From the IMG/VR virus record IMGVR_UViG_3300033141_004289, positions 40,851 to 104,850 of that record: 64,000 bases of DNA; one strand, written 5' to 3'. The stretch comes from a virus. The position numbers were made by a program, and so were the translations under genes. Below the pieces are notes generated by a model. That model was not told where the DNA came from and searched no databases. It worked only from the letters and a program-made list of their open reading frames with translations. Positions 2 through 12,855 of the stretch are shown in pieces (position 1 is the first letter of the stretch; each line of letters opens with the position of its first letter).

Positions 2-364
2 CCAACTATTATCAACTTAGGTAATGGAACTCACTCAATTGATTTAGTTAATAATAAATGGATGAATAGATCATTTTTTGATGCTTTATTTTCATTAGCA
101 GATCATATGGAAAGTATGCCAAGTGATATTGATGAAAGAGCTGCATTTGTTATTAAAGGTGGTAAAAAGGTAAAGGTAGCACTAGTTAGAAGAAAAAGAA
201 AAAAGAGACTAACTTCTAAACAAAAAGCTGGTTTTAAAAAGGGTGCTAGAAAAAGGAAAGCAAAGAAGGGCCAAATAAATAGAAAAAGGGCCAAATCTTT
301 AAAGGTTCGTAAAAGACTTAAACTAAAGAAAAATACTAATAAGAAATTAAAGGTAATGCGATAA
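2..364 (+). CDS. Prohead core protein, T4 gp68-like (5'-partial; frame is open back to the window start)
   Basis: Very K/R-rich C-terminus (RKRAKSLKVRKRL) resembles gp68-type core proteins. It lies upstream of protease and capsid genes. There is no stop between positions 2 and 62 in this frame. Confidence 0.55.
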   Translation, partial: PTIINLGNGTHSIDLVNNKWMNRSFFDALFSLADHMESMPSDIDERAAFVIKGGKKVKVALVRRKRKKRLTSKQKAGFKKGARKRKAKKGQINRKRAKSLKVRKRLKLKKNTNKKLKVMR

Positions 365-882
365 TGAAAGTCATCAATGAAATAAATAATTTTTTATGGG
401 CAAGCATTTTTGAATCTATTGATCTGAATGAAAACATTAACATGCGGTTTGTTTCTGAAAAAGAATGTGACGAATATATTGAAAGAACAGAAATTTGGAG
501 AATTGAAGGGGATGAATCTGACCCTGAGGGGACAGAGGTGCTTTCAGCTTATTCTAAAGTTGACGGGTCATATATAGGTCAAATTAAAGAAGCTGACATA
601 ATGGTGAAAAAATGGGGATTATCCCAAATTCAAAAAGCCGAAAATGGTCACAGCGTTGCATCAATCGGATTTAATGAAAAGAAACAAGAATGGTGTGGGT
701 GGAGTCATAGAGCAATGTGTGGTTTTGGAATTGGTGATAAAGTATTTGATGAAAGTTTTGGCGGCACAATGGATATAGGCCAATTGGAAAAAATGCCCTT
801 TAGAAAAAGGGGTAGTATAGTTATCGCTAAATTAGAACAAGCAAAAAAAGCAGCAAGTAATTTTGCTAAATATGTGAGCTAA
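364..882 (+). CDS. Hypothetical protein, candidate internal head protein
   Basis: 172-aa ORF coupled by TAATG. N-terminus MKVINEINNFL resembles those of 12283 and 12607. Confidence 0.6.
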   Translation: MKVINEINNFLWASIFESIDLNENINMRFVSEKECDEYIERTEIWRIEGDESDPEGTEVLSAYSKVDGSYIGQIKEADIMVKKWGLSQIQKAENGHSVASIGFNEKKQEWCGWSHRAMCGFGIGDKVFDESFGGTMDIGQLEKMPFRKRGSIVIAKLEQAKKAASNFAKYVS

Positions 883-883
883 A

Positions 884-1099
884 ATGGCAAAGGAAAAAGA
901 AGAATTAGTTGGTAAGGCCTTAATGACAGAGCTTTCAAGATATGCTCTTAGAATTGGTAGAAAAGCCGAATCCAGTGCAGTTAAAGACAAAACTAATTTA
1001 ATTTTGGCCATTGGTTTAATAAATCATGCCCAAGGATTAGTGGAAGTTGATGCCACTAAAGCAAGGCGTTTAATGGGCCAAGTTAAGAAACTGATATAA
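884..1099 (+). CDS. Hypothetical protein
   Basis: 71-aa ORF tightly packed in the operon. Confidence 0.6.
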   Translation: MAKEKEELVGKALMTELSRYALRIGRKAESSAVKDKTNLILAIGLINHAQGLVEVDATKARRLMGQVKKLI

Positions 1100-1109
1100 G
1101 GGGTTTTGC

Positions 1110-1361
1110 ATGGATGCTAAAGGAATTGGTGTTGGTACTATATTAAGTGGAATAATTCTTGGCTTAATTGCTTGGTCAGGTGTTCAGATTGTTTCAAATG
1201 CAAAGGCAGTTACTAGATTGGAAGAACGAGAAATGGCCACTAGGGATATTATCATTAGAATGAGAACTGATTTTGATAAAAGATTGGATAGTATAGATTC
1301 TAATGTAGATTGGATAAGACGAAATTTATATTATAAGGGAACCCCTATTAGGGGTAAATAG
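1110..1361 (+). CDS. Small membrane protein (N-terminal TM helix plus coiled coil), possibly holin/XhlA-like
   Basis: Hydrophobic GIGVGTILSGIILGLIAWSGV followed by a heptad-like segment. Confidence 0.45.
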   Translation: MDAKGIGVGTILSGIILGLIAWSGVQIVSNAKAVTRLEEREMATRDIIIRMRTDFDKRLDSIDSNVDWIRRNLYYKGTPIRGK

Positions 1362-1373
1362 TAAGGACAAGTC

Positions 1374-10981: not shown

Positions 10982-11515
10982 ATGGCAAATTTCTCGATTG
11001 ACCAATTAAGAGCTTTACCCGACTACGCACAGGTTACAAAATGGGATGTCACCTTTGTAACTCTCCCTGCTGTCGGTGCATTGGGTTTTCCAGTAGCAGA
11101 AGATATTAATCTTCGTTGTGAATCCGTTGAACTTCCTAAAGGTGCAAACCAGAAATATGAAGTAATGACTAGAGGTCATAAAACACTTCATAGTGGAATC
11201 ATGGATTATGGAAACACTATTACATTAACTTTTACAGAAACAGTTGATAATTTCTTGTTTAATTTTGTAAAAGCATGGAGAGAACTGGTTTGGAGTAGCC
11301 GTCAAGGACAGGCTTTTTCTAAAGCAGATATTGAGGCAACTCTATTGATTACCTTGCTTGATAACCAAGATAATCCAAGGGCCAAATATACTGTTTATGG
11401 TTGTTTTTATGAAAGTGATGATTTTGGAACATTAGATGGTTCAACCTCTGATGCTATGAAACCATCATTGACATTAAGTTTTGACCATTTTGTAGATGCA
11501 CCTCTAAGCGTTTAA
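10982..11515 (+). CDS. Tail tube protein (gp19-like)
   Basis: 177 aa directly after the sheath, with CESVELP, ITLTFTET and LTLSFD. Confidence 0.85.
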   Translation: MANFSIDQLRALPDYAQVTKWDVTFVTLPAVGALGFPVAEDINLRCESVELPKGANQKYEVMTRGHKTLHSGIMDYGNTITLTFTETVDNFLFNFVKAWRELVWSSRQGQAFSKADIEATLLITLLDNQDNPRAKYTVYGCFYESDDFGTLDGSTSDAMKPSLTLSFDHFVDAPLSV

Positions 11516-11526
11516 TTTGATTTATA

Positions 11527-11558
11527 GGGGGTAATAACTATATGTTACTACCCCTTTT
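11527..11558 (+). terminator. Rho-independent terminator after the tube gene
   Basis: GGGGTAATAAC-TATAT-GTTACTACCCC followed by TTTT. Confidence 0.75.
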
Positions 11559-11602
11559 CATCTTCCAAATCAGTTCATATAATATTCCAGAGAGGTTTAA
11601 CT

Positions 11603-12286
11603 ATGGCACTTGTTCCTAGTTTTATTCCGGGTGGCGATAAAATCAATAATGCTGTAAATAGTTTTCTTGATGGTGGAGCTGTAGGAATAGAAACAATTCG
11701 TTCTATTAATTATGGAACAACTTATTTATGGACTGTCGATTTTATTGATACTAATGGAATTAAACCACCAGCTCCATTTGATGCATTTTTTCCAGCATCC
11801 GAAGTTACCTTTAATTTGGGTATCATTAATTCACATACTGTAGAGATGGGGCAATCAAGCATTACATTTCCAAGAAATACTACTTTTAAGACAGTAGATG
11901 TAACCTTTTTTGATGACGAAAATAGAAGTTTACAAAGATGGATGAGTGATTGGATGAATGTGGATTTACTAAATTATGGCGAATTTATGTCTGGGATAAA
12001 TGATAGTCATCAAGTAGTTGCAGCCGATTCATTTGGAAATAGTAGTAGAAGTGTTCAACCAATGAGACATATTAGAATTGCACTATTAGATAAATATAAA
12101 TCAGAAACTGTAGTATATAATTATAATGTTGTACCTGATGGTAATATTGATTTTGGTGGGACTCAAGCAAGTGAAGCATCTCAGTTTAGTATGAAGTTTA
12201 ATATCGTAGAGGAATTAGGAAGACCGAAAGCCGGTGATAGTAGTTCCTTTAATTTTGTAAGAAATATATTAGGTAGGTTTATATGA
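11603..12286 (+). CDS. Tube-fold baseplate/tail-tube initiator (gp54/gp48-like)
   Basis: Tube-like pattern VDVTFFDDENRSLQRWMSDW and synteny. Confidence 0.6.
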   Translation: MALVPSFIPGGDKINNAVNSFLDGGAVGIETIRSINYGTTYLWTVDFIDTNGIKPPAPFDAFFPASEVTFNLGIINSHTVEMGQSSITFPRNTTFKTVDVTFFDDENRSLQRWMSDWMNVDLLNYGEFMSGINDSHQVVAADSFGNSSRSVQPMRHIRIALLDKYKSETVVYNYNVVPDGNIDFGGTQASEASQFSMKFNIVEELGRPKAGDSSSFNFVRNILGRFI

Positions 12287-12629
12287 AATTAGTAAATGAA
12301 ATTAATTCAATGTTGGAAGAGGTTGATGCTAAAACAGATATGAAAGTTGATGATTTTGTTAGTAAATTTTTAATGAAAACCTATAAATTAGATTCCTATC
12401 CAGATGGTAGTGGAGTTGAAGGTAAATCAATTAGAAAGACTTTCCCTGTTAGGGATATAAAAGATGTTGATGCTAAAAAAATAGAAGATGCTATAAATGG
12501 TAAATTTAAAGATATTTTAAAATCTGTGTCTGTTAAAAAGAAAAGTCCTAGGAATCAAGTCGCCCAGTATTGGGTGGATATAAAATTTAAATAAAGGTAA
12601 GTTTATATGAAATTAGTAAATGAAATTAA
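12271..12629 (+). repeat. 35-bp direct repeat (12271-12305 and 12595-12629) covering the RBS and first codons of two adjacent ORFs
   Basis: AGGTA(G/A)GTTTATATGAAATTAGTAAATGAAATTAA, one mismatch. Confidence 0.85.
12283..12594 (+). CDS. Small hypothetical, candidate internal head protein
   Basis: N-terminus MKLVNEINSMLEE. Confidence 0.6.
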   Translation: MKLVNEINSMLEEVDAKTDMKVDDFVSKFLMKTYKLDSYPDGSGVEGKSIRKTFPVRDIKDVDAKKIEDAINGKFKDILKSVSVKKKSPRNQVAQYWVDIKFK

Positions 12630-12855
12630 AAATTTAATTGAAGCAGTAGATGGAAAAGAACTAAAAGCAGAATTATTAAAGAATAAAAACATTCAAGCAG
12701 TAGATACAGAAAAAGGAAAACTTATTGCTATTGTTTCACCAGAAATGAAGCATAAATTTTTGGCAGATATAAAGAAGAGTAAACTAATGAATCAATCTGC
12801 AAATTGGGTAGATTCAGCAGGTAAAACAATAAAGTTTTACTTCGATGTAAAGTAA
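12607..12855 (+). CDS. Small hypothetical, candidate internal head protein
   Basis: N-terminus MKLVNEIKNLIEA. Confidence 0.6.
   Translation: MKLVNEIKNLIEAVDGKELKAELLKNKNIQAVDTEKGKLIAIVSPEMKHKFLADIKKSKLMNQSANWVDSAGKTIKFYFDVK

Follow-up and report, generated by a model that had tools for sequence, protein, structure and literature searches.

In a 64,000-nucleotide window of phage DNA (bases 40851 to 104850 of the 104,850-bp contig IMGVR_UViG_3300033141_004289; window coordinate = genome coordinate - 40850), several small open reading frames (ORFs) in and around the head genes began with related N-terminal leader peptides. Across the whole contig, such leaders were found on 14 ORFs, about 8% of all genes, and they formed two amphipathic classes. 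The reading that we favored, with slightly more confidence than doubt and on the strength of sequence comparisons, was that both leader peptides are capsid-targeting and propeptide tags of the type known from phage T4, and that they serve in head loading and processing. The body of one leader-bearing protein belonged, by homology, to the Tad6 family of anti-Thoeris proteins. Leaders that resembled the T4 tag, together with one anti-Thoeris domain, suggested that proteins made beforehand probably travel with the phage DNA.

The leaders were identified among 169 ORFs that were called genome-wide with a simple rule based on the longest ORF and the ribosome-binding site (RBS). When N termini were compared pairwise for every called protein with 60 amino acids (aa) or more, 31 pairs had a BLOSUM62 score of at least 25 over residues 2 to 12. 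Two control windows inside these proteins yielded 1 such pair apiece. The control pair came from two TGT/DpdA-like paralogs, the only non-leader cluster of similar N termini; these paralogs lie in tandem at genome 22818-24157 (positions 2818-4157 of L002) and have near-identical N-terminal stretches. Class A (MKLAEK[IVC]L) had five members, at genome 12994, 24224, and 31959, upstream of the window, and at genome 47751 (window 6901) and 48904 (window 8054). Class B (MK[ILV][IVT][NQ]E[IL]N.[LFM]L) had nine members, at genome 24892, 25389, 30525, 31067, and 40037, again upstream of the window, and at genome 41214 (window 364), 48453 (window 7603), 53133 (window 12283), and 53457 (window 12607). 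The initial annotation had described seven leader ORFs scattered through the late operon. All seven were present, with plausible RBSs, and six carried leaders of class A (6901 and 8054) or class B (364, 7603, 12283, and 12607). The seventh, on the plus strand at window 6056..6322 (MSIAKKIL..), was a marginal ORF that was absent from the top scores described below and was not a significant member. With eight members upstream of the window, the family was genome-wide rather than confined to the late operon.

Regular expressions for the two motifs matched at position 2 of five class A and eight class B proteins. The sole "internal" match in 32,936 residues, at genome 30525, also stood directly after a methionine and supplied the ninth class B member. 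At this locus, a single open frame (genome 30321-31070; L002 10321-11070) comprises 68 residues followed by the class B leader and its body, and the internal Met has GAAGG upstream. The first 68 residues look like a separate small DNA-binding, winged-helix-like domain, and the frame is either a gene fusion or a source of two products. In a scan of the proteome with position-specific scoring matrices (PSSMs), the members scored 22.7 to 32.9 bits, and the best non-member positions scored 10.9 (class A) and 11.6 (class B). Three look-alikes (genome 33555, genome 40543, and window 6056) were below the member scores. As the initial annotation had proposed, the bodies behind the leaders showed no similarity: all blastp comparisons of the bodies to one another and to other proteins of the genome gave E > 0.05, and the tandem pair at window 12283 and 12607 could be aligned over residues 1 to 17 only.

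Most leaders ended in a hydrophobic-x-Glu site. Specifically, [LIVMF]-x-E ended at residue 12 to 18 in 12 of the 14 leaders versus 15 of 155 other proteins (Fisher p 1.7e-9), and at residue 12 to 13 in 9 leaders versus 7 of the 155; because the members are not mutually independent, these statistics serve only as a description of the motif. Short motifs of this type are cleaved behind the Glu by gp21-lineage proteases, the sites being ITE-6, LTE-619, and IAE-10 in T4 and [S/A/G]-x-E in phiKZ and SPN3US (PMC5694885). The capsid targeting sequence (CTS) of T4 is MKTYQEFIAE (PMC8442874), in which residues 4 and 7 determine targeting and residues 8 and 10 (the third residue ahead of the cleavage point, and the Glu itself) determine processing (PMC9026906). 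The leaders described here resemble the CTSs of T4 IPI, IPII, and IPIII and the Alt propeptide in that they are about 10 to 12 residues long, are located at the extreme N terminus of unrelated, poorly conserved proteins, and end in hydrophobic-x-Glu. Both phages have genes for a protease of the gp21 family and a capsid protein of the Gp23 family; in T4 it is gp21 that removes the tag. T4 cargo includes the counter-defense protein IPI*, and the counterpart here, by homology, is the Tad6-family protein. The two systems also differ. There are two leader classes rather than one and 14 genes rather than three or four; the leader is 2 residues longer, with the hydrophobic-x-E two residues further along; the protease is fused to a scaffold in a phage that is only distantly T4-like; the genes are scattered, some among DNA-modification genes; and the present system is a candidate read from sequence. 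What the initial annotation had called a new targeting code is more aptly seen as a pattern like that of the T4 CTS, M-K-x-hydrophobic-[NQ]-E-hydrophobic. The gp21-related S80 proteases of phiKZ, 201phi2-1, and SPN3US (S/A/G-x-E) also cut after Glu, as proposed here, but the propeptides of head and ejection proteins in these giant phages are usually long, protein-specific, and found in paralog families, whereas the leaders here are a short common tag on unrelated bodies. A similarity is that the SPN3US paralogs gp53 and gp54 have an identical 15-residue N terminus, with divergence in the remainder (PMC5694885).

The conservation of the leaders was at the level of the peptide. Nucleotide identity between members was 0.64 to 0.69 over codons 2 to 12, 0.38 to 0.46 over the 30 nucleotides (nt) upstream, and 0.29 to 0.33 over codons 13 to 23, versus a background of 0.31 to 0.34. 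In class B leaders, identity was highest at codon position 2 (0.84), intermediate at position 1 (0.65), and lowest at position 3 (0.43), an order that held within the leaders. Substitutions were conservative (I/V/L and N/Q), and the hydrophobic moment was 0.61 in leaders versus 0.31 in other N termini (p 1.5e-8). The codon-position order, the conservative substitutions, and the amphipathicity pointed to selection on an amphipathic peptide. The view that the leaders are a peptide-level feature specific to N termini and ending in hydrophobic-x-Glu held up in the extended family.

The genome also encodes head proteins of the T4 type. The head and proximal tail module, in which the window members were found, contains a protease-scaffold gene (window 2093-3469), the gene for the major capsid protein (MCP; 3549-4964), sheath (9378-10967) and tube (10982-11515) genes, and a gene for a T4_baseplate-family protein (12866-13669). 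The protease-scaffold protein (plus strand) consists of a gp21-like prohead protease, at about residues 1 to 190, fused to a coiled-coil scaffold. It matched Pfam Peptidase_S77, the gp21 family (E 2.1e-7; 31.1 bits versus a curated cutoff of 27), and PHROG 207, "head maturation protease" (E 1.5e-23), as the initial annotation had expected of an encoded gp21-like protease. Its sole sequence match in the PDB was T4 gp21 (5JBL, E 0.1), and its GH and SSR motifs were aligned with Ala positions of the 5JBL chain. We presume that these Ala positions are where the catalytic His and Ser were mutated in the 5JBL construct. The gene starts with GTG, has AGGA upstream, and overlaps the preceding stop codon (window 2093-2131). 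The N terminus of the protease, MKLEKIS, is itself like class A with one residue missing, which recalls the LIE-9 site near the N terminus of T4 gp21 (PMC9026906). The protease is a candidate for the enzyme that processes the leaders, and its scaffold a candidate for the core where they would dock. The MCP (window 3549..4964, plus strand) matched Pfam Gp23 over residues 76 to 436 (E 5.1e-8; 33.2 bits versus a cutoff of 24.4). About 75 N-terminal residues precede this conserved core, and several [ML]-x-E sites among them, read directly from the sequences, are kept in a related contig, L004. The terminase is T4-type, and the capsid protein is at most 37% identical to those of the nearest cultured phages, which makes this a distant myophage with a T4-type head.

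The initial annotation had further suggested that class A leaders mimic the C-terminal helix of the scaffold. We rejected this idea, which rests on the 4-residue match A-[DE]-[KR]-I, as unsupported. This motif occurred five times in the proteome (in three class A leaders, one scaffold C terminus, and one MCP), and about 2.7 occurrences were expected by a hand estimate from rough residue frequencies; outside the leaders, its frequency was about that of chance. The scaffold C terminus was not among the top PSSM scores.

The putative cargo protein that could be recognized is encoded at window 364..882 (plus strand; 172 aa) and carries a class B leader at residues 1 to 17 (nt 364-414) that ends in I-F-E. 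Its body matched Pfam PF25188, Tad6 (E 2.7e-31; 109 bits versus a cutoff of 27), with residues 38 to 172 covering profile positions 9 to 145 of 145, and it keeps the Tad6 core GWSHR....FGIGD. Judged by this match, the body is a Tad6-family anti-Thoeris protein. Tad6 is an inhibitor of type I Thoeris that copurifies with ThsB and is predicted to block the ThsB active site (PMC13728456, a 2026 review). With one cargo body in a family of Thoeris (ThsB) inhibitors, the cargo likely includes counter-defense proteins, which fits the anti-defense role that the initial annotation had envisaged. The match to the family was near full length, and the class B leader is part of about 25 additional residues at the N terminus. 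A class B-like start was confined to the closest relatives (P0002, on a 116-kb contig; P0003, on a 43-kb contig; and P0006), which were 3 of the 12 homologs found; the homologs carry PF25188. Structural matches in BFVD were uncharacterized phage proteins of 108 to 117 aa with 38 to 41% identity, presumed to be short relatives, and searches of the PDB by sequence and by fold returned no relative of the body. In an AlphaFold2 (AF2) model built with the homolog alignment, the leader formed a helix at residues 2 to 18 with a predicted local distance difference test (pLDDT) score of 52 to 63, residues 18 to 22, directly after I-F-E, were disordered, and the body from residue 25 was mostly at pLDDT >=90. 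A low-confidence helix, a disordered linker, and a confident fold suggested that the leader is appended to the functional domain and is not part of it. A modeled complex of the protease-scaffold protein and the Tad6-like protein scored 0.00; it gave no verdict and was not used either way.

The same pipeline was applied to two cultured phages, Yersinia phage YerA41 and the flavobacterial Maribacter phage Molly_1, both of which were chosen from capsid matches. In YerA41 (MW570730.1; L016, L017, and L015), five genes on the minus strand at about 139741-143979 (205c, 206c, 208c, 209c, and 210c) share the 12-residue leader MS[RK]IS..KFE[AS] or a variant of it. These genes adjoin the portal gene, and their bodies are nearly unrelated. 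By length and order, they correspond to genes 004, 005, 006, 008, and 009 in Table S2 of PMC7354516, which lists all five proteins as late and, in LC-MS/MS analysis, particle-associated. The passages of PMC7354516 that were consulted contained no mention of the shared leader. The table entries showed that leader-sharing small proteins of this capsid lineage occur in virions. YerA41 and the present phage belong to the same broad capsid lineage (MCPs 26% identical), and both have a 12-residue leader with a Glu followed by a small residue on bodies that are largely unrelated; the leader sequence of YerA41 is different, however, and its genes number only five, all clustered beside the portal gene. 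The MCP of Molly_1 belongs to the Gp23 family, and its protease is likewise fused to a scaffold; the S77 match of this fusion fell slightly short of the curated cutoff. Molly_1 also has a leader family of its own, with four or five ORFs that share the start M.T..IK[ST][LM][IV]ES, ending in [LM]-[IV]-E-S (L012 13131-13565 and 17676-17918; L014 7604-7975 and 8009-8293).

The leader genes turned over rapidly. A search of IMG/VR with the capsid protein found one related contig, the 6.4-kb L004, in which the MCP was 69 to 70% identical and the conserved head genes were in the same order; capsid-protein searches of JGI metagenomes and GTDB genomes found no relatives. L004 lacked counterparts of the window 6901, 7603, and 8054 ORFs, and where the window 6056 ORF would be, it had an unrelated 115-aa ORF (3927-4274) with a class A-like start, MKLSEKF.., and a dissimilar body. 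The bodies of the leader ORFs were mostly ORFans. Homolog searches with the proteins at genome 53133, 24892, and 31959 returned only the proteins themselves, plus one weak partial match (E 9e-5) for 24892; the search with 53133 found no homolog among 5.8 billion protein clusters. A tblastn search of the phage collection with 24892 gave no match, and the ESM Atlas held no usable neighbor of 24224 or 40037. With so few homologs, conservation of leader and body across orthologs could be compared for Tad6 only. The presence or absence of these genes relative to L004 and the lack of homologs for three members among billions of proteins indicated that the leader genes are variable cassettes of the genome, with bodies that are accessory proteins of fast turnover. 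The genes for T-even internal proteins likewise vary between phages, with the CTS retained (PMC3012670; PMC9026906).

The other five members in the window are all on the plus strand. The class A ORF at window 6901..7185 encodes 94 aa, and its leader ends in F-S-E at residue 12; it is absent from the syntenic region of L004, its match to a cold-shock-like domain was weak (E 0.0045) and the only one, and a single-sequence AF2 model was uninformative (pLDDT 49.6). The second class A ORF (8054..8323; 89 aa) has its first post-leader hydrophobic-x-E, V-V-E, at residue 18. The class B ORF at 7603..7872 (89 aa; L-L-E at residue 12) is the most divergent member (22.7 bits). The tandem class B ORFs at 12283..12594 (103 aa; M-L-E at residue 12; an ORFan) and 12607..12855 (82 aa; L-I-E at residue 12; plus strand, as before) have basic bodies and share about 12 nt upstream and about 24 coding nt, with nothing in common beyond.

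In the mechanism that we infer, the 12-residue N-terminal amphipathic helix would dock a newly made protein on the prohead core, formed by the protease-scaffold fusion together with associated core proteins, as the shell of Gp23 type is built around it. The gp21-family protease would then cut after the closing Glu of hydrophobic-x-E at residue 12 to 18, and the mature body would be retained in the head and exit with the DNA at infection. Several observations weighed against a head tag of this kind. The member at genome 40037 lacks the closing Glu, and two members have a Glu only at residue 17 to 18. The agreement of class B with the T4 CTS at M1, K2, hydrophobic-4, [NQ]5, E6, and hydrophobic-7, which spoke for the tag, is too short for statistics. 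Eight of the 14 genes fall beyond the head module, in the company of 7-deazaguanine and terminase genes, and the T4-type late promoter TATAAATA was not enriched. With about 8% of genes bearing it, a head tag would also be remarkably common for a genome of roughly 105 kb. The YerA41 precedent is supportive rather than specific, since Table S2 lists 9 of the 10 genes in the stretch as particle-associated and since the particle preparation, in which 63 of 201 proteins were detected, also held many enzymes (PMC7354516). Finally, the leader region was AT-richer than other gene starts (GC 0.205 versus 0.300), and the mRNA at leader starts was less structured (-2.8 versus -5.1 kcal/mol).

The last two observations would fit the idea that the leaders act chiefly as nucleic acid, either as a movable region for translation initiation and/or as a short patch of homology through which recombination captures and swaps new genes, and that the encoded peptide is incidental; we consider this quite unlikely. 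The behavior of the leader genes as insertion-deletion cassettes is in keeping with it, as is the sharing of about 12 nt upstream, including the RBS, within two pairs (genome 24224/31959 and 53133/53457), and identical synonymous codons were slightly in excess (48 versus 35 expected, and 103 versus 87 expected). Short mobile regulatory cassettes that shuffle genes have reportedly been found in T4-type phages, and we counted this in its favor. A nucleic-acid module, however, would not be expected to show third codon positions that are the least conserved, near background in class B, and second positions that are the most conserved, nor conservative substitutions, and in most pairs the upstream DNA was not conserved. 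It would also leave the amphipathic periodicity and the positioned Glu unexplained. The AT richness, the weaker folding, and the shared upstream nucleotides could instead reflect a role in translation or in recombinational exchange of cassettes alongside the function of the peptide, and a nucleic-acid role can coexist with a CTS.

If the peptide is what is selected, it could still be a functional helix for some other purpose, such as docking or oligomerization with a host factor, a phage chaperone, or degradation control, common to many accessory proteins. Any interaction made by a helix would account for the peptide conservation and amphipathicity, over half of the members are outside the structural module, and two classes could mean two partners. 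We regard this explanation as unlikely, because it has no known precedent and because the T4-type protease and capsid, the closing hydrophobic-x-E, the fact that several members adjoin portal, protease, and head genes, and the particle association seen for YerA41 in Table S2 point to the head. Very unlikely, in our view, is that the members descend from one or two ancestral genes and, as highly divergent paralogs, have kept nothing recognizable but the N-terminal helix, with no modular tag at all. Some members are adjacent (genome 24224/24892/25389 and 53133/53457), as tandem duplication predicts, but the proteins range from 81 to 223 aa, blastp detected no signal between bodies, and leader similarity ends abruptly at about codon 12 to 17. 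Moreover, one body comes from Tad6, an independent and widespread family whose other members have no leader.

Capsid targeting of the T4 type was thus the reading that we retained. The kind of system is already known from T4, and what is new is the presence of two leader classes, the scale, the distant lineage, and a recognizable anti-Thoeris cargo. A bolder version, which we consider doubtful, is that two orthogonal head-address codes load at least 12 rapidly exchanged cargo proteins, including a prepackaged Thoeris inhibitor that arrives before gene expression, and that, given the similarly built, lineage-specific leaders of Molly_1 and YerA41, injected effectors can be predicted from sequence across distant phages with T4-type heads. 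Proteins that are packaged and injected are hard to find and are enriched for counter-defense functions. If the leaders are head-loading tags, such proteins could be read straight from the genome, and the Tad6-family protein would be the first Thoeris inhibitor delivered as a protein rather than expressed after entry. The T4 CTS principle would then extend to distant T4-type-head phages of marine Bacteroidota and enterobacteria, and the tags would be of practical use for bringing foreign proteins into capsids other than that of T4. Molly_1 and YerA41 are available as cultured stand-ins.

Several other features of the contig and its relatives were recorded. The contig has a GC content of about 33%, and the record may be incomplete, since contigs with identical proteins are up to 119 kb long. 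A scan of IMG/VR with a class A DNA pattern gave 5 matches, apparently by chance, and a class B pattern gave one match, on the 141-kb contig L011. There, an ORF on the minus strand (2854-3360) has MKMINEINELLD after a 13-residue basic stretch, which may be a class B-like leader that begins at an internal Met in a large, unrelated phage. Between the portal gene and the Tad6-like gene lies the gene for a 223-aa protein (plus strand; genome 40543-41214), the C-terminal part of which is encoded at window 2..364. This is the look-alike at genome 40543, and its start, MKLIQQLFEEM, is merely leader-like. Its middle part is extremely acidic, and its tail, about 70 residues long, is polybasic, which is reminiscent of DNA-associated internal head proteins. 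A conserved head-module protein at window 6326-6901 (L004 4274-4846) had no Pfam match; it has a C-x-C ... C-x-H pattern (CSC.DF.HRF ... CKH) that resembles a SWIM-type zinc finger.

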